DNA of 64,000 nucleotides, taken from positions 1 to 64,000 of the IMG/VR virus record IMGVR_UViG_3300032288_005197; one strand, 5' to 3'. Below the pieces are notes generated by a model, which saw only the letters and a list, made by a program, of their open reading frames with translations, did not search any database and had not been told where the DNA came from. Position 1 is the first letter of the stretch. Every line of letters begins with the position of its first letter. The stretch comes from a virus. The position numbers were made by a program, and so were the translations under genes. This document shows positions 57,976 to 63,932 of this stretch, piece after piece.

Positions 57976-58207
57976 ACTGATAGTATCTATAGGTTATTGT
58001 ATCTTGAGGTCTTGTAGTTCCGGTAACTGGAACAATATCGCCATTATCTAGAACGGCATAGTATCTTGGTGAAATTTCGTCGTGAATGCTGACCGGTCGC
58101 TTTTTAAAGACGCTCACAATCACGTGTTTTTCGACTTTTACAGAAGATGGGCCTGCGCAGCTTGCAATCAGGCCTAAGACCAATGTTAATATGATTAAAT
58201 TTCTCAT
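57959..58207 (-). CDS. Putative lipoprotein
   Basis: Signal peptide with lipobox LIASC. Confidence 0.6.
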   Translation of the reverse strand: MRNLIILTLVLGLIASCAGPSSVKVEKHVIVSVFKKRPVSIHDEISPRYYAVLDNGDIVPVTGTTRPQDTITYRYYQYVEKR

Positions 58208-58617
58208 ACGAAAGATTCTTTTGTTATTGCAGCAATTCGGGCTTTTTGCTCGTTAGTTAACAACCAACGGTCTTCCCAAAGTTTATGTAATACAGTACCA
58301 AATTCCTGTTCAGAATAGGTTCCGCCAGAGAAAAGCTCTTCGGGAGTTTTTGGCGAATCATCGTCATCTCCAAATTCCTCCTTTAAATCTTCGTACATTC
58401 GCTGCTTGTCCCATGAGCTTGCTTCCCAAAGTATGTCATCAATATCGACATAGGTGGAGGCTTCTAGATTTCTGGGATGATACTCTCCATCGGGAATTGG
58501 AGTGCCGAACTCTTCTTCCATATCCTCCCTTAAGTATTCAACCAGTTTTCGTTTTTCATTTAGGTTCAGATCGTCAACCAATTCGGTGACATCGACTGTG
58601 ACTCTTATGTCTGACAT
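58204..58617 (-). CDS. Hypothetical acidic protein with internal duplication
   Basis: VDVTELVDDL..EKRKLVEYLREDMEEEFG and VDIDDILWEA..DKQRMYEDLKEEFG. Confidence 0.6.
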   Translation of the reverse strand: MSDIRVTVDVTELVDDLNLNEKRKLVEYLREDMEEEFGTPIPDGEYHPRNLEASTYVDIDDILWEASSWDKQRMYEDLKEEFGDDDDSPKTPEELFSGGTYSEQEFGTVLHKLWEDRWLLTNEQKARIAAITKESFV

Positions 58618-58774
58618 GATAGTATTGTTATTTGTTTAATTTACTTGTTAATACTGATGGATTCATCCGCCTAGCACGTCTATGACAACTATGTCAATTA
58701 AACTTGCTACTATTTTAAGTCTTTTACCGGATCTTATCATCATTAATATTTAGGTTATTATACTCAATAAAAAC

Positions 58775-58798
58775 AAAAAAGTCCCCAATTGGGGACTT
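58775..58798 (-). terminator. Intrinsic terminator
   Basis: AAGTCCCC-AATT-GGGGACTT with a U-run on the minus strand. Confidence 0.8.
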
Positions 58799-58826
58799 AA
58801 TTAAATAGTGGTCGTAAAAATTAGCT

Positions 58827-59222
58827 TTACACAGATTTAAAAACTATGCTAACTAGTATGCCGGCAACTGCTGTGAATAGAATCCACAGAATTTTGGTTA
58901 CCGTGCTCTTCCATGACATTAATTCCTTGTGTTCGTCAATGATGTTTTGAAAAGTCTTTTCGGACTCCTCTTTTCTTTTACGAAATTCGGTGTTCTTATT
59001 AACTCTGACAACGATTCCGTCCTCTGGATCTAATAGTTGCTTTTTGATCTGTCTCAGATCTTCATGCATGTCCTCTTGAGCAGATTCAATATTCTCAATC
59101 TTGTCCTGTATTGACTTGATCTCGCCGTTTGGCATCTTGTCCTTGATCACATCAAGGGCATCAAGAATGTCATTCATCATAGAGTCAATATCGTGATTGA
59201 CTTCTCTGCGTCTTCCGCTCAT
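58827..59222 (-). CDS. Coiled-coil protein with a C-terminal transmembrane helix
   Basis: KILWILFTAVAGILVSIVF at the C-terminus. Confidence 0.6.
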   Translation of the reverse strand: MSGRRREVNHDIDSMMNDILDALDVIKDKMPNGEIKSIQDKIENIESAQEDMHEDLRQIKKQLLDPEDGIVVRVNKNTEFRKRKEESEKTFQNIIDEHKELMSWKSTVTKILWILFTAVAGILVSIVFKSV

Positions 59223-59232
59223 CTAGGAAAAA

Positions 59233-59541
59233 TTAGTCTTTTTTAGGCTCGTCATCCATCATGACGTTTGCATCAACGACAGGGGCATTAGCTTCTCCGT
59301 TTTCGTCATCCGTCATGTGAACTGCTGCGTCCGCTTCAGGCTCATCATCAATAGGCTCTTGAGCTGGAACTGGCATATCGTCACCAGTCGGCTCATCGCT
59401 AATTGGCTCGTCCATTACAGTAGGCAGTTCGTCTTGCATTGGCTCAATTTCAGAAGCTGGCATCTCTGGGCCAACTTGACCTTGTGCATTCTGCTTCACG
59501 AAATCCTCAAAGCTTAAGATTGTACTGTTATTAGTCTCCAT
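59233..59541 (-). CDS. Acidic disordered putative internal head protein
   Basis: ILSFEDFVKQ; late motif at 59562-59569. Confidence 0.55.
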   Translation of the reverse strand: METNNSTILSFEDFVKQNAQGQVGPEMPASEIEPMQDELPTVMDEPISDEPTGDDMPVPAQEPIDDEPEADAAVHMTDDENGEANAPVVDANVMMDDEPKKD

Positions 59542-59576
59542 TTTAGTGAAATAATTTGAGTTTATTTATCTGGGAA

Positions 59577-59601
59577 ATTGGAACAATTTGAGCCTCGCTC
59601 T
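59577..59601. repeat. Left copy of an imperfect inverted repeat flanking the 59612-60370 gene
   Basis: ATTGGAACA-ATTT-GAGCCTCGCTCT on the plus strand matches ATTGGAACA-TA-GAGCCTCGCTCT on the minus strand at 60446-60468. Confidence 0.8.
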
Positions 59602-59611
59602 AGGCTAATTG

Positions 59612-60370
59612 TTATTCTGAGACTGGGGTTCCGCAATTAGGACAGAACTTCCAGCTTGATTTTTTGTGACGGGTGCCACAGCCTGTGCAGTACGAGCGGA
59701 TTTCTCCCATCTCGACAGGTTTTTTGCTCTCGGGCAAGATTTGCCACTCGGAGGTGACGCTAGCCCAATCGCTAAAGTTGCCGTAACCGTTTGAGAACTC
59801 CTGTTTTGAATCGGAGCCCTGCTCAACTCGACCAGTTTCAAAGGACCCGGCAATACTTGAATTGCAGTAGTTCAAGCTAGCTCCAATTGAGCTTGTGAAA
59901 GTCGCTGGGCTTGATGAGTATGTGATTGTGCTTGGATAAAGCTGCCAGTTGGTCGTGCCTGAATTGCTTTTCCAGGCTGGAGAGATCTCGTCGTAAAAGA
60001 ACACTTTGATCTTACCATTGTTTGCAACTGCTGCTTTCGCTTCAGCCGAATCCTCAACCTCGTAAGTTTCAAAGACAAGTTTCTTTGCTACGTCAATGAA
60101 CCTTTCAAGATAAACTCGTTGGCCTGGTTTCAGGATGATGCCTGCTTCCGAAAGCCATTGACCATTCACCATGATCTTTGCAAGTACTTGGGTTGTTTTT
60201 GGATTAAAGAGCTCAATTTCGAAATTTGAACCCGTTTTTAAGTAGACCGTGTGGCCGTATGCCTTTAGTCTTCCTCTGCTCTTTGTGATGTGAGCGGTTG
60301 GTTGTGGTTGACTGTTAAAAGTATTGAATACTGCAGTCGAACCACCTAGTGTGATTGTTTGTTGGTACAT
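59612..60370 (-). CDS. Hypothetical protein with C-terminal double-CxxC zinc ribbon
   Basis: FEIELFNP..LKPGQRVYLERF..FETY; CTGC..CPNCG; likely start MYQQ at 60370. Confidence 0.7.
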   Translation of the reverse strand: MYQQTITLGGSTAVFNTFNSQPQPTAHITKSRGRLKAYGHTVYLKTGSNFEIELFNPKTTQVLAKIMVNGQWLSEAGIILKPGQRVYLERFIDVAKKLVFETYEVEDSAEAKAAVANNGKIKVFFYDEISPAWKSNSGTTNWQLYPSTITYSSSPATFTSSIGASLNYCNSSIAGSFETGRVEQGSDSKQEFSNGYGNFSDWASVTSEWQILPESKKPVEMGEIRSYCTGCGTRHKKSSWKFCPNCGTPVSE

Positions 60371-60389
60371 AGTAGTTATGTTATTTTTG

Positions 60390-60468
60390 CGCATCTCATC
60401 GTAACCTTTAGCGATTACTCAAGGGCTCGTAAACCCGAGACGAACAGAGCGAGGCTCTATGTTCCAAT
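60390..60468 (-). ncRNA. Structured 5' leader: hairpin plus three-way junction, includes the right inverted repeat copy
   Basis: GAACAUAGAGC-CUC-GCUCUGUUC hairpin; CGUCUC/GAGAUG closing GGGUUU-ACG-AGCCC and GUAAUC-GCUAAA-GGUUAC. Confidence 0.55.
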
Positions 60469-60471
60469 AAT

Positions 60472-60498
60472 ATTTAACTAAGTTCCCTAAAAAAGTTT
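60472..60498 (-). promoter_or_regulatory. AAAC-N17-TTAAAT promoter
   Basis: Same class as 27105; places the start site near 60466. Confidence 0.5.
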
Positions 60499-60499
60499 T

Positions 60500-60895
60500 T
60501 TACTTTCGTATCCACTTATTTTCAGAGGTTAGAGTAAAACTGCCAATGAAGCAGTCTGCTTTGCCCCATTCCTGAGGTGATATGAGGCTCAGTGTGTTCG
60601 TTCCATCAAAATCATATAAATGATAGGTTTTTCCAACGATTGGATCAAACGATATTTTAGATTCCCAAACCATTAGCGAATCGTTGAATTCAGTTGTTAG
60701 TTTCGCAGCTCTTTCAATTAGCTCAACCCGTTCTCTCTCAAAAACGTCCATCATCTTTTTGGACGACTCTGTTCGAATTAATGATACGTTGGGTAATTTG
60801 AATGCCGGGGCACCAATATTGGTTGGATAGGGCTTAAGATTTGCATCGTATCCATTTTCTTCTGACCAAACAACTAAATCGGGTTTTTTACTCAT
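60500..60895 (-). CDS. DUF2452-like protein
   Basis: PYPTNIGAPAF..FDPIVGKTYHLY..LSLISPQEW. Confidence 0.7.
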   Translation of the reverse strand: MSKKPDLVVWSEENGYDANLKPYPTNIGAPAFKLPNVSLIRTESSKKMMDVFERERVELIERAAKLTTEFNDSLMVWESKISFDPIVGKTYHLYDFDGTNTLSLISPQEWGKADCFIGSFTLTSENKWIRK

Positions 60896-60912
60896 ATCAT
60901 TTTTACTCTACT

Positions 60913-61260
60913 TTAATATTTCACCACTTTGACGCTAAGCCCAGCCTTTTTCGCCAGCTCAATCATGTGGCCTGTGCCCTTGCTTTGACCGTCCCAGAAA
61001 CATATACAGGAGTCAGCGTACTGAGCCATTTCAGCATTTCTCTTGAATCCAGCAGCCTTTCCGAATCTTTCCCAATCCGCTGGAAATCTTTTGACTGGCA
61101 GGTCCTTATCGATTGCATAATGCTCTCCCAGAAGATCAGCACCCTTTGCTCCACCCGACACAATCTCAACTCCTGGAACTCCTGAGATTAGCTTGCCCAC
61201 TTCCTCGCATAACAAATCGTAGTTAACGAAATTTCTGCCTCCTGCAATTATGAGTTTCAT
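60913..61260 (-). CDS. SLOG/DUF2493 (YspA-like) protein
   Basis: IIAGGRNF, VSGGAKGAD, ADWERFGKAAG..RN..M, WDGQSKGT. Confidence 0.85.
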   Translation of the reverse strand: MKLIIAGGRNFVNYDLLCEEVGKLISGVPGVEIVSGGAKGADLLGEHYAIDKDLPVKRFPADWERFGKAAGFKRNAEMAQYADSCICFWDGQSKGTGHMIELAKKAGLSVKVVKY

Positions 61261-61493
61261 CCTTGCTCTTTCATTAGATGTTGAGGTAGTTCCGATTCAT
61301 TGAACGCTCGACATAGCCCAAAGTGGATCCATCGATTAATGAAATCGGTTGAATACTCGTTGGCATCAGTAATGACCTTTCCTTTGATTGGGTCAGATGA
61401 TGCCTTAACAATCCTTTCCTGACGTTTGCCTTCCGCAAACACAAGAACCATTCCTTTTTTCAGTTTCATTTGTATTAGTGTTTTCTGATCCAA
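61257..61493 (-). CDS. Hypothetical protein
   Basis: Short ORF with ATGA overlap to the next gene. Confidence 0.45.
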   Translation of the reverse strand: MDQKTLIQMKLKKGMVLVFAEGKRQERIVKASSDPIKGKVITDANEYSTDFINRWIHFGLCRAFNESELPQHLMKEQG

Positions 61494-61593
61494 AATACAA
61501 TCTTCTAACCTTCTCTCCTAGTTCCATGTCATTTGGAATCGTTTGGATAAGCTCAATAACTTTTTTGCTGAAGACTTCGTCGATTTTGCTCAT
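61405..61593 (-). CDS. Hypothetical protein
   Basis: PNDMELGEKVR motif. Confidence 0.5.
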   Translation of the reverse strand: MSKIDEVFSKKVIELIQTIPNDMELGEKVRRLYFGSENTNTNETEKRNGSCVCGRQTSGKDC

Positions 61594-61621
61594 AGTTTAA
61601 TCGATTATTTTATGCAATATT

Positions 61622-61825
61622 TTACCCAAATTTTGCAATACTTTTATATTTCTTTTTAATATCGTCGATCTCTTTCATGGCCTCGTTAAACTTATCCTTG
61701 ATCTCATCGTTAACTGTAAAATCCAATATCGTTTGACAGTTAGGACAGACTGAAACTGGATGTTTCATTATGAATTGTAGGTCTATGCCTAGGGGTGTTC
61801 TGCATGCTGGACAAGGTAATGCCAT
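61622..61825 (-). CDS. Small zinc-ribbon plus helix protein
   Basis: CPAC..CPNC followed by an amphipathic helix. Confidence 0.7.
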   Translation of the reverse strand: MALPCPACRTPLGIDLQFIMKHPVSVCPNCQTILDFTVNDEIKDKFNEAMKEIDDIKKKYKSIAKFG

Positions 61826-61826
61826 A

Positions 61827-62540
61827 CTAAGAAGTTTTGTCAGTATGACTTACATCATCTAATTTTTGAATCAACATTTCGACTAATCGAGAAACGGCTT
61901 CCGGCTTTTCGTCCTTCTTGAATTTAACTTTCACAGTTGCCATACCTGCTTTACTTTCTGAATTTGGTGCATTACTGTCAACTGCAATATTAGTTACAGT
62001 ATGAGTGTAATCCGACGCAGTTGAGACTCCAAGTAGTTTACAAGTTGCATCATCCGCTTCTCCAGTTTGAGGTATCTTGTGTTTTGCTTGGTAAATCTTT
62101 AGGGCTTCTCTACATTTAGGCCCAATCACTCCATCCACTCCGTTCTTGTTGGCTCCAGTTTTTCCAAGTAAAGTCTTATAAGGCTCTCCCAGTTTAACTA
62201 GGGCTTCTTGAACTCCACGGATAGTTTGAACCTCAATCTTCTTAAATATGGGTAAAACATTTTCTTTAAGACTCGATGGAGTCCTATCGTCTGAAGCTAA
62301 CAACCTAATATCGAAATTAATATCGAGTTCTTCTAGTCCCATTGAAGAATGGTCAGCTAGAATGTAGAGAGGAATGTCTATCTCCTTATCGCCGATTAGA
62401 AATTTTTTAGTAAGTGGTGTACCGTCCGGCGTAAAGTACTTTGAAATAGTATTTATGTGTTGTCTTTCCTGAATACCGAGAACGATTAATGCTGCTTCTT
62501 GTAGACCTCCCAGTAATTCTTCTAGATTAATTTTAGCCAT
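61827..62540 (-). CDS. DUF2589-like protein with an inserted peptidoglycan-binding domain
   Basis: IPLYILADHSSMGLEELDINF..PEAVSRL flank VQEALVKLG..VDGVIGPKCREALKIYQAKHKI..TGEADDAT. Confidence 0.7.
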   Translation of the reverse strand: MAKINLEELLGGLQEAALIVLGIQERQHINTISKYFTPDGTPLTKKFLIGDKEIDIPLYILADHSSMGLEELDINFDIRLLASDDRTPSSLKENVLPIFKKIEVQTIRGVQEALVKLGEPYKTLLGKTGANKNGVDGVIGPKCREALKIYQAKHKIPQTGEADDATCKLLGVSTASDYTHTVTNIAVDSNAPNSESKAGMATVKVKFKKDEKPEAVSRLVEMLIQKLDDVSHTDKTS

Positions 62541-63241: not shown

Positions 63242-63321
63242 TATTCTTGATTTTTTTATTATTTATCTAGGCAGTCTACTCCGAGTCGATGAAAATTACA
63301 GCTTGTTAATATTCAGTTAAT

Positions 63322-63398
63322 TGGTACACCCGGAGAGATTCGAACTCCCAACCCCTTCGTCCGTAGCGAAGTGCTCTAATCCGTTGAGCTACGGGTGC
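63322..63398 (-). tRNA. tRNA-Arg(ACG)
   Basis: Cloverleaf; anticodon arm CTTCG-CTACGGA-CGAAG; encoded CCA. Confidence 0.95.
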
Positions 63399-63403
63399 AA
63401 AAT

Positions 63404-63480
63404 TGGTGATCCCGACAGGGCTCGAACCTGTAACCCCCAGCTTAGAAGGCTGGTGCTCTATCCAGTTGAGCTACGGGACC
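63404..63480 (-). tRNA. tRNA-Arg(TCT)
   Basis: CCAGC-CTTCTAA-GCTGG; encoded CCA. Confidence 0.95.
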
Positions 63481-63503
63481 ATTTTTTGTTATTATACTAA
63501 ATC

Positions 63504-63592
63504 TGGCGGAGAGCGGAGGGATCGAACCTCATACGTTTTACCGTACGTCGCGCTTAGCAGGCGGACCCACTCGCCGTTGTGGATCACTCTCC
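63504..63592 (-). tRNA. tRNA-Ser(GCT), 8/4 fold
   Basis: 8-bp acceptor GGAGAGTG/CGCTCTCC, 4-bp T stem GAGG/CCTC, long variable arm, G73, CCA. Confidence 0.85.
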
Positions 63593-63593
63593 A

Positions 63594-63681
63594 TGGTACC
63601 TCAGGCCGGACTCGAACCGGCACGGACCTTACGGTCCACTAGATTTTAAGTCTAGCGTGGCTACCTTTACACCACTGAGGC
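63594..63681 (-). tRNA. tRNA-Leu(TAA)
   Basis: CTAGA-CTTAAAA-TCTAG; variable arm; CCA. Confidence 0.95.
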
Positions 63682-63686
63682 ATTCG

Positions 63687-63767
63687 TACCCAGAGTCGGA
63701 CTCGAACCGACACGTCTTTCGACACTAGTTCCTAAGACTAGCGCGGCTACCATTACGCCATCTGGGC
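63687..63767 (-). tRNA. tRNA-Leu(TAG)
   Basis: CTAGT-CTTAGGA-ACTAG; no encoded CCA. Confidence 0.93.
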
Positions 63768-63770
63768 AGA

Positions 63771-63848
63771 TGGGGTGACCGATGGGAATCGAACCCACGA
63801 CCTCTTGAACCACAATCAAGCGCTCTAACCAACTGAGCTACGGCCAAC
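63771..63848 (-). tRNA. tRNA-His(GTG)
   Basis: CTTGA-TTGTGGT-TCAAG; encoded G-1 and C73; CCA. Confidence 0.93.
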
Positions 63849-63849
63849 G

Positions 63850-63932
63850 CGGAAGAAGAGGGAATCGAACCCCCAAGGCTTTTACACCCAGCTGTTTTCA
63901 AGACAGTTTCCTCGTCCATTCGGACTCCTTCC
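63850..63932 (-). tRNA. tRNA-Ser(TGA), atypical
   Basis: ACTGT-CTTGAAA-ACAGC; long variable arm; G73; no CCA. Confidence 0.85.

Follow-up and report, generated by a model that had tools for sequence, protein, structure and literature searches.

The subject of this study is a gene for a zinc-ribbon protein (59612-60370, minus strand), together with the RNA into which it is probably transcribed, in a 64,000-nucleotide stretch of viral DNA (hereafter, the window); the window is the first 64 kb of the 85,560-bp IMG/VR record IMGVR_UViG_3300032288_005197, classed as linear and about 32% complete. We found that two segments flanking this gene, one placed at or near the putative transcript start and the other just past the stop codon, are complementary and may pair into a long-range helix, here called S0. 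Comparison of the sequences of related loci establishes that this complementarity is conserved while the sequences of the arms have changed, that a structured leader with covarying pairs lies between the 5' arm and the start codon, and that this leader is linked exclusively to one gene family. Pairing of the arms as RNA is very probable, whichever of two RNA-level explanations considered below is correct. As to its function, we lean with moderate confidence towards a feature of phage mRNA in which S0 mainly governs the fate of the message, through protection of its ends or through processing.

The 5' arm, ATTGGAACA-TA-GAGCCTCGCTCT, occupies 60446-60468 and the 3' arm, AGAGCGAGGCTC-AAAT-TGTTCCAAT, occupies 59577-59601, both on the minus strand; the latter begins 10 nt past the TAA stop codon (59614-59612). 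A first-pass annotation of the window had described 12 + 9 perfect pairs between them and had noted that each end could fold locally instead, and both descriptions proved accurate. The 21 pairs of S0 are arranged round an asymmetric 2x4 internal loop. The local 5' hairpin, H1, reads GAAC-AU-AGAGC / CUC / GCUCU-GUUC (60442-60464, minus strand); its AGAGC/GCUCU stem with the GAAC/GUUC extension has a predicted energy of -7.1 kcal/mol and excludes S0. The local 3' hairpin, AACAAUUAGCCU / AGAGCG / AGGCU-CA-AAUUGUU (59582-59613, minus strand), starts within the stop codon and shares nucleotides with the 3' arm, being likewise mutually exclusive with S0; the predicted energy for AACAAUUAGCCU/AGGCUCAAAUUGUU is -10.3 kcal/mol (z -2.2). 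When the 941-nt RNA was folded, S0 was present in the minimum-energy structure, with a z of -6.4 based on only 20 shuffles. Perfect 12-mer inverted repeats at most 2 kb apart are common in this genome (30 k-mer hits in 85.6 kb); on the other side, S0 gives the highest complementarity between 5' and 3' flanks among the 99 open reading frames (ORFs) of this genome (score 34, next 28, mean 19.0, standard deviation 4.1), and its score lies above those of all 1120 shuffled tails (maximum 27). Taken from this genome alone, the signal beyond chance appears modest. That S0 does exceed chance follows from its relatives, which keep the complementarity with changed arm sequences.

A scan of viral contigs revealed 110 places encoding a relative of the protein, 80 of which were retained (42-94% identity), and three further loci came from scanned species genomes, all on metagenome-assembled contigs whose bins were labelled Bacteroidetes, Saprospirales and Polynucleobacter. 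Removal of a truncated locus (L003) and of identical flanks left 62 non-identical loci with 56 distinct leaders. The segment from the -10-like box to the leader junction was compared with the first 60 nt from the stop codon by a strict local helix score, which replaced RNAduplex on windows of 230 x 83 nt, as the latter was too noisy in A/T-rich DNA (cognate -38.0 vs non-cognate -28.6 kcal/mol, with poor ranks). The mean score with a locus's own 3' tail was 29.8, against 14.2 for shuffled tails (standard deviation 2.8, maximum 27) and 15.2 for tails of other arm types (standard deviation 3.4). The own tail exceeded the 99th percentile of shuffled tails in 47 of the 56 loci and outscored every tail of another type in 39. 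Inspection by eye found S0 in 46 of 56, so that the complementarity round homologs, proposed as a check in the first-pass annotation, indeed recurs with different arm sequences. Score and eye do not always coincide: three loci of the type called C reach 23 through A/U- and G.U-rich matches to a terminator, and the perfect 11-pair helices of L024 and L077 score exactly 22. There are about ten arm types with unrelated sequences, for example GTATTGAAGGGTGCCTTTCGTAC pairing with GTACAAAGGCACCCATTCAATAC and GAAACACCCATAAT with GTTGTGGGTGTTTC. Within arm types 75-97% of the alignment cells stay paired, compared to 17-60% when the partner is slid, and the length of the helix varies across lineages from 11 pairs, as in L077, to about 35, as in L030, often being at least 20.

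Otherwise unrelated arms share a short G/C core (GAGCC, GTGCC, GCGCC or ACACC, pairing with GGCTC, GGCAC etc.), found in the window at 60451-60455 and 59592-59596 and often exposed in the loop of H1. This core may be a nucleation site for S0 or a recognition element. It could also be argued that the whole complementarity is a functionless by-product of two local structures, a 5' stabilizing hairpin and a 3' terminator-like hairpin, which happen to share a G/C-rich core. Hairpins do exist at both ends, the GNGCC/GGCNC core is found in many arms, cross-type scores of 24-29 are reached among types with GGTGCC, and 10 of the 56 loci, as judged by eye, do without S0. However, the complementarity runs past the core into non-palindromic, type-specific flanks, and cognate tails score about twice as high as cross-type ones. 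Moreover, CTC in the loop of H1 corresponds to GAG in the 3' arm, a complementary and not an identical triplet, which indicates an inverted repeat instead of two copies of one palindrome. We regard such a by-product as the least probable of the explanations discussed here, with next to no weight given to it.

Absent from the first-pass annotation was a three-way-junction leader (60392-60442, minus strand), situated between the 5' arm and the start codon, which is, as judged from the aligned sequences, the most conserved part of the unit. It was obtained by unguided RNAalifold on the 56 leaders, and the single-sequence fold of the window agrees with it. Stem A (60437-60442 with 60392-60397) encloses hairpin B (60423-60436), followed by the junction UUGA, and hairpin C (60401-60418), followed by the junction GAU; between the junction and the start codon there is an A-rich spacer (60371-60391), all of these on the minus strand. 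The spacer is unpaired in the window fold and A-rich in every lineage aligned. In the leader alignment 97.2% of cells are paired, and both sides have changed in 14 of the 15 pairs. The covariation score was 0.725 vs 0.285 for shuffled alignments, with none of 500 shuffles as high, and slid controls were 41-50% paired. The leader is rich in G.U pairs (GU in 45 of 56 sequences at one pair, UG in 54 of 56 at another), which places it on the mRNA strand, since these would be A.C on the other one. A covariance model built from the alignment gave exactly one match in each of the 47 loci searched, in every case immediately before the ORF, and a single match in the window's own record (E 1.5e-15, the next being at E 0.6). 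It also matched three of five loci from GenBank records of huge phages, one of which, L090 from a 462-kb phage, has the long-range helix as well. There was no match at E up to 1 in Lak-B5 or Lak-C1, where inspection by eye suggests that a diverged version of the leader may be present.

Constraint on the leader may reach further than base pairing. Its identity to the window in the nine closest loci is 87-97%, vs 62-94% nucleotide identity for the ORF, and in L016 the two values are 92% and 63%. Six loci (L010, L013, L015, L016, L017 and L081) were seen to have a leader 87-92%, a 3' tail 73-83% and an ORF 62-68% identical in nucleotides to the window. This higher conservation of the untranslated regions (UTRs) than of the ORF points to sequence-specific constraint beyond pairing, or else to recombination that carries the UTRs. 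Assignment of the leader to known RNA classes gave negative results. Rfam 15 gave no relevant match for 59300-60800 at E up to 10, and at gathering score only tRNAs were found in the window and 16 related loci; with no Rfam match, a known ribozyme or riboswitch was rejected. A tRNA-like or tmRNA-like element was rejected too, as ARAGORN finds only the tRNA array at 63322-63932. We take the junction sequences not to fit the hammerhead core, and the arms presumably do not fit the integron attC core sites RYYYAAC/GTTRRRY, so both of these candidates were dismissed. About 8,500 candidate structured RNAs were catalogued in 2023 from the intergenic regions of IMG/VR (PMC10690425), and the junction leader may already be included there under a DNAVirus number. 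Since the pipeline behind this catalogue used intergenic regions only, the 5'-3' helix would not be visible in it.

Inverted repeats round a gene may also function in DNA, as the switch of an inverton, as terminal repeats of a mobile cassette, or as a paired operator looping the gene, and the first-pass annotation, while favouring RNA, had itself named a mobile or selfish cassette as a possibility and a search for inversion as a check. The arrangement is indeed reminiscent of invertase switches, in which inverted repeats flank a segment and a promoter lies just outside: here, repeats of 20-25 bp surround about 0.9 kb, with a promoter-like block just outside. Repeats bound by one protein would also co-vary, and a zinc-ribbon protein could in principle bind DNA. 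Furthermore, the upstream neighbour switches at the promoter/5' arm between the window and L002 or L008 (94% and 65% protein identity): these two loci have a different upstream gene, and their homology with the window breaks there (window 60469-60520), which suggests a recombination joint at this boundary.

Nevertheless, the balance of observations speaks against a role in DNA. Under symmetric scoring, mismatches in S0 are G.U in 17 cases vs A.C in 5, an excess on the sense strand (binomial p 0.017, uncorrected for relatedness of loci), and the helix tolerates bulges (52 gap positions in 38 helices), with bulges and asymmetric loops differing between the arms. Except for the short G/C core, arm sequences are wholly different between lineages, and the 5' arm overlaps a hairpin adjoining an RNA leader with sense-strand G.U pairs. 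The order of promoter-like block, 5' arm, leader and ORF is the same in all 56 distinct leaders, and in all 47 loci the leader model matched the plus strand only, ahead of the ORF. Contigs of four sequencing runs, which represent DNA, bridged both arms colinearly and contained no inversion or excision joints, with the reservation that contigs drop rare variants, so such forms could be missed. Runs from 15 studies contain the DNA of this stretch, and none of those found to contain it is recorded as RNA. There is no target-site duplication beside the arms and no recombinase among the seven neighbouring ORFs scanned (58204-62540), as the first-pass annotation had stated; the genome has a single copy of the unit, and the gene next to it downstream is the same throughout the window's lineage, only the upstream one being variable. 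An inverton would be expected in both orientations in populations, and a transposon or an element like a miniature inverted-repeat transposable element (MITE) would be expected to have a target-site duplication and copies at unrelated sites; neither picture emerges from these sequences. Thus, the G.U pairs, bulges, placement at the transcript start, colinear contigs and lack of a recombinase among the seven ORFs all favour RNA over an inverton or mobile cassette, and we consider action of the arms in DNA very improbable.

The placement of the 5' arm at the transcript start is deduced from a promoter-like block, AAAC-N17-TTAAAT(A) (60471-60498, minus strand), located directly upstream of it. 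The promoter claimed in the first-pass annotation is a putative one: blocks like it recur ahead of the 5' arm in a number of lineages, and AAAYYTTY is found at most 45 nt upstream of this arm in 23 of 56 loci, but the sigma-70 scan did not list the block in the window. The stricter pattern AAACYTTTN{9,14}TWWATA has this block as its sole match in the window and, occurring once, defines no promoter class here.

In the mechanism that we propose, transcription would start at or within a few nt of the 5' arm, which during RNA synthesis would fold into the weak hairpin H1, to be followed by the junction leader, the unpaired A-rich spacer and the ORF. The 3' arm, made about 10 nt past the stop codon, would then displace both H1 and the local 3' hairpin, giving the far more stable S0 and closing the whole cistron into a loop. 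One possible consequence would be that S0 buries the 5' end and the post-stop region, protecting them from 5'-end-dependent and 3' exonucleolytic decay in a way similar to that of hbs mRNA (see below). Alternatively, S0 of about 20 or more pairs could serve as an RNase III processing site at which the cistron would be cut out of a longer transcript; S0 may in this manner mark out the cistron within longer transcripts, with RNase III acting where the helix is long enough. The junction leader, specific to this gene, would have a role apart from that of S0, offering a binding site; its simplest ligand would be the encoded zinc-ribbon protein, which would in that case act on its own message.

Among the documented cases, the behaviour closest by analogy to that proposed for S0 appears to be that of the hbs mRNA of B. 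subtilis, in which a 14-bp helix between the 5'- and 3'-UTR modulates access of RNase Y and thereby stability of the message (PMC5737220). There, the leader pairs with the region past the ORF of the same mRNA, beside a highly structured 5'-UTR, which is also the layout of the zinc-ribbon unit (PMC5737220). The hbs helix belongs to a single cellular gene, whereas S0 is kept across many phage lineages with changed sequences; S0 also differs in being situated, as predicted, at the very start of the RNA, in being usually longer and in having a gene-specific three-way-junction leader. Pairing of the 3'- and 5'-UTR within one mRNA is likewise described for icaR of S. aureus, where the 3'-UTR pairs with the Shine-Dalgarno region and blocks initiation, the duplex being a substrate for RNase III (PMC3868564). 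According to both reports, such helices alter the action of RNases in bacteria, and we count this in favour of a role of S0 in mRNA fate. Direct occlusion of initiation is unlikely for S0, because some 75 nt separate this helix from the start codon downstream of it and the A-rich spacer is left unpaired, in contrast to the icaR duplex, which covers the ribosome-binding site.

Several points weigh against a role of S0 in mRNA fate. Closure of the cistron is dispensable, as the ten loci mentioned above (eight of type C, L050 and L072) lack S0 by eye and the other two huge-phage loci with a leader match show no clear one. In some lineages (the L018 group, L077) the helix has only 11-15 pairs, which is too short for a typical RNase III site, and a processing role cannot apply to these versions. 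Only 13 of 144 pair positions show compensatory changes within arm types, as arms of one type have diverged very little from each other. As the loci are related, the figures from shuffling and from the binomial test overstate independence and are not true probabilities. On the other side, S0 was found in the minimum-energy fold of 17 out of 18 representatives of S0-bearing lineages, with a pairing probability of 0.69-0.96 vs 0.36 and 0.19 in two controls from loci lacking S0, which speaks for the helix; these representatives had been trimmed at the arm ends, which biases the fold to end pairing. The first-pass annotation had placed the arms at the transcript ends; this probably holds for the 5' arm, which adjoins the promoter-like block, but on the 3' side no terminator-like site occurs in the window until 58798-58779, so that a longer transcript may run through the 3' arm. 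Finally, regulation by the zinc-ribbon product of its own mRNA is a guess, suggested by the exclusive link of the leader to this gene.

The loci of type C (L028, L035, L042-L046 and L051) constitute one lineage in which S0 was lost. Lineages lacking S0 retain H1 together with the junction. In type C the local 5' hairpin (CTAGA/TCTAG) is stronger, and some 8 nt past the stop codon there is a strong terminator, a combination which fits end protection or processing as the role shared with S0. This lineage thus offers a natural 'open' variant, useful for comparison. An intrinsic terminator past the 3' arm is seen by eye in about 10 loci. In the window, the first terminator-like site downstream, at 58779-58798, is a perfect 20-nt palindrome, AAGTCCCCAATTGGGGACTT, with a T-run on the minus strand, placed after two more small ORFs.

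The same closure of the RNA could have translational control as its main purpose, and we treat this second RNA-level explanation as possible, though rather unlikely. It assumes a conformational switch, in which H1 and the local 3' hairpin would keep the arms apart until ribosomes arriving at the stop codon melt the 3' hairpin. S0, formed then beside the junction, would permit re-initiation on a closed loop, or would keep the mRNA stable and inactive until 3' trimming, in a manner resembling hok. Mutually exclusive local and long-range structures are indeed predicted; the stop codon is part of the 3' hairpin, and the distance from it to the 3' arm is 2-14 nt in S0-positive loci, within reach of a terminating ribosome given the size of its footprint; the inner end of S0 is separated from the junction leader by 0-8 nt. 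The probable hosts are Bacteroidota, in which initiation relies on unpaired A-rich leaders and not on Shine-Dalgarno pairing, and such an unpaired spacer is conserved here. Against the switch, S0 touches neither the start codon nor the spacer, being some 75 nt away, unlike the icaR duplex. Of 44 distinct 5' segments that were folded, most are predicted to have an H1-like hairpin overlapping the 5' arm (mean z -1.5), but these hairpins are weak (-2 to -9 kcal/mol, and 0.0 kcal/mol in 4 of the 44). The local 3' hairpin is retained in the closest relatives (L002, L015 and L016) and is not conserved beyond the window's lineage. Lineages without S0, moreover, keep the same junction leader.

A bolder version of this idea would be a 'closed-loop' prokaryotic mRNA, in which S0 sets terminating ribosomes beside the junction leader, and termination toggles the RNA between the state with H1 and the 3' hairpin and the closed one. 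If this were true, ribosomes might be fed back to the start codon, or rounds of translation might be counted, with the zinc-ribbon product reading the junction. No description of such a translation-coupled switch in phage or bacterial mRNAs was found in the literature searched, and we consider it improbable.

The zinc-ribbon unit can also be set against better-known RNA systems. In the hok/sok mRNAs, studied by Gerdes, Franch and Gultyaev, the two ends of the full-length message are paired with each other (the tac-fbi fold-back), metastable local 5' hairpins form first, and covariation among homologs supports the pairing. S0 resembles this system in the pairing of 5' and 3' ends and in the competing weak local 5' hairpin. 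However, the zinc-ribbon unit is not a member of the hok family, since it lacks an ORF for a small hydrophobic toxin of about 50 amino acids: its product is a zinc-ribbon protein of 252 amino acids, whereas hok encodes a membrane toxin. Neither an overlapping reading frame nor an antisense RNA gene was seen at the locus (a consensus scan, which is weak evidence, found no promoter-like site on the plus strand in 59577-60498 for an antisense RNA), and the RNA in the window may continue beyond the 3' arm. RNase III processing stems flank 16S and 23S rRNA and occur in phage T7 early mRNAs; like them, S0 consists of flanking complementary segments with at least 20 pairs and internal loops that could release the enclosed RNA, but here a protein-coding cistron is enclosed, and several lineages have 11-15 pairs. 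In phage T4, an operator consisting of a pseudoknot and an unpaired A/U-rich leader precedes gene 32, coding for a zinc-binding protein which regulates its own synthesis. A structured 5' element and an unpaired leader before a gene for a zinc-binding protein are common to both cases; nonetheless, the present element is a three-way junction and not a pseudoknot, there is no relation in sequence or family, and autoregulation here is a guess. The gp32 family did not appear among the 25 Pfam families shown out of 50 (E up to 1).

With complementary leader and post-stop segments in the same putative transcription unit, the element is a predicted 5'/3'-UTR interaction of the hbs, icaR and hok kind and not categorically new. 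It differs from these in that the arms are conserved with changed sequences over many phage lineages, that S0 would enclose a full-size ORF, from the start of the RNA to a point just past the stop codon, and leaves the initiation region untouched, and that an end-to-end helix is coupled to a new gene-specific junction leader; no description of such a unit was found in the literature searched. Documented 5'/3'-UTR interactions of the bacterial type amount to a handful, each from a single gene. The same design found across dozens of divergent phage lineages, including 460-kb 'huge' phages, provides natural compensatory variants, and it combines a leader without an Rfam match with a protein family of more than 2000 members that extends to the Lak megaphages. 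It thus represents a testable system for studies on how end-to-end pairing sets mRNA fate in large Bacteroidota phages, whose probable hosts lack, in all likelihood, classical Shine-Dalgarno initiation, and it gives a handle on an uncharacterised core gene of these viruses.

In the protein itself, a variable linker of low complexity joins an N-terminal domain, which has invariant residues, to a C-terminal zinc ribbon of the form CxxC...CxxC, in which Cys236, 239, 251 and 254 are invariant. The start given by the ORF finder (60394, 260 amino acids) falls inside stem A of the leader. Homologs begin eight codons downstream of it, M9 is nearly invariant, and the conserved ATG at 60370 gives the product of 252 amino acids, so annotation pipelines probably call the start too early in this family. 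The match to PF13240 (E 7.9e-5) is below the curated cut-off. No family was assigned to the N-terminal domain, as Pfam, PHROGs and NCBIfam return only zinc ribbons, and a profile search of PDB sequences gave matches only at the zinc-ribbon level (best E 0.036). A weak match to Csl4 (9 of 56 members, best E 0.061) was taken as an echo of the zinc ribbon and rejected. Among the 120 listed of 2354 homologs the only names are 'hypothetical protein' and 'zinc-ribbon domain'; protein clusters are mostly viral, and those of a protein atlas are unnamed. Relatives are present in Prevotella Lak megaphages and in other huge phages, and from these sequences the hosts are probably Bacteroidota.

The genome surrounding the unit has a G+C content of 0.40, and the window contains many co-oriented small ORFs. 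Just past the 3' arm, outside the RNA unit, lies a late-promoter-like motif, AGATAAATAAAC (59560-59571, minus strand), which would serve the next gene (ATG 59541). Its shorter form, ATAAATAA, resembles in its sequence a promoter of the T4 late type and occurs in 21 copies in the window vs 6.1 expected, with none of 100 shuffles as high. The sites include 59562-59569 and 63259-63266, and several of them are seen by eye just before ORF starts. The motif is absent before the zinc-ribbon gene, and its copy past the 3' arm is conserved in the window's lineage.

The seven neighbouring ORFs scanned (58204-62540) comprise DUF2452, a YspA-type SLOG domain, DUF2589 with a peptidoglycan-binding domain, and an XhlA-like product, the rest being matchless. 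The XhlA/hemolysin-like small membrane protein is encoded at 58827-59222 (phrog_937, E 1e-4), and the DUF2589 protein, with the peptidoglycan-binding domain inserted in it, at 61827-62540; these proteins, which flank the region, may be lysis-related. About 3 kb upstream of the zinc-ribbon unit, ARAGORN detected an array of seven tRNA genes (63322-63932, minus strand): Arg-ACG, Arg-TCT, Ser-GCT, Leu-TAA, Leu-TAG, His-GTG and Ser-TGA. In three other phages (L070, L075 and L077) a tRNA is located immediately before the junction leader, and in L077 the 5' arm begins about 4 nt past the 3' end of this tRNA.

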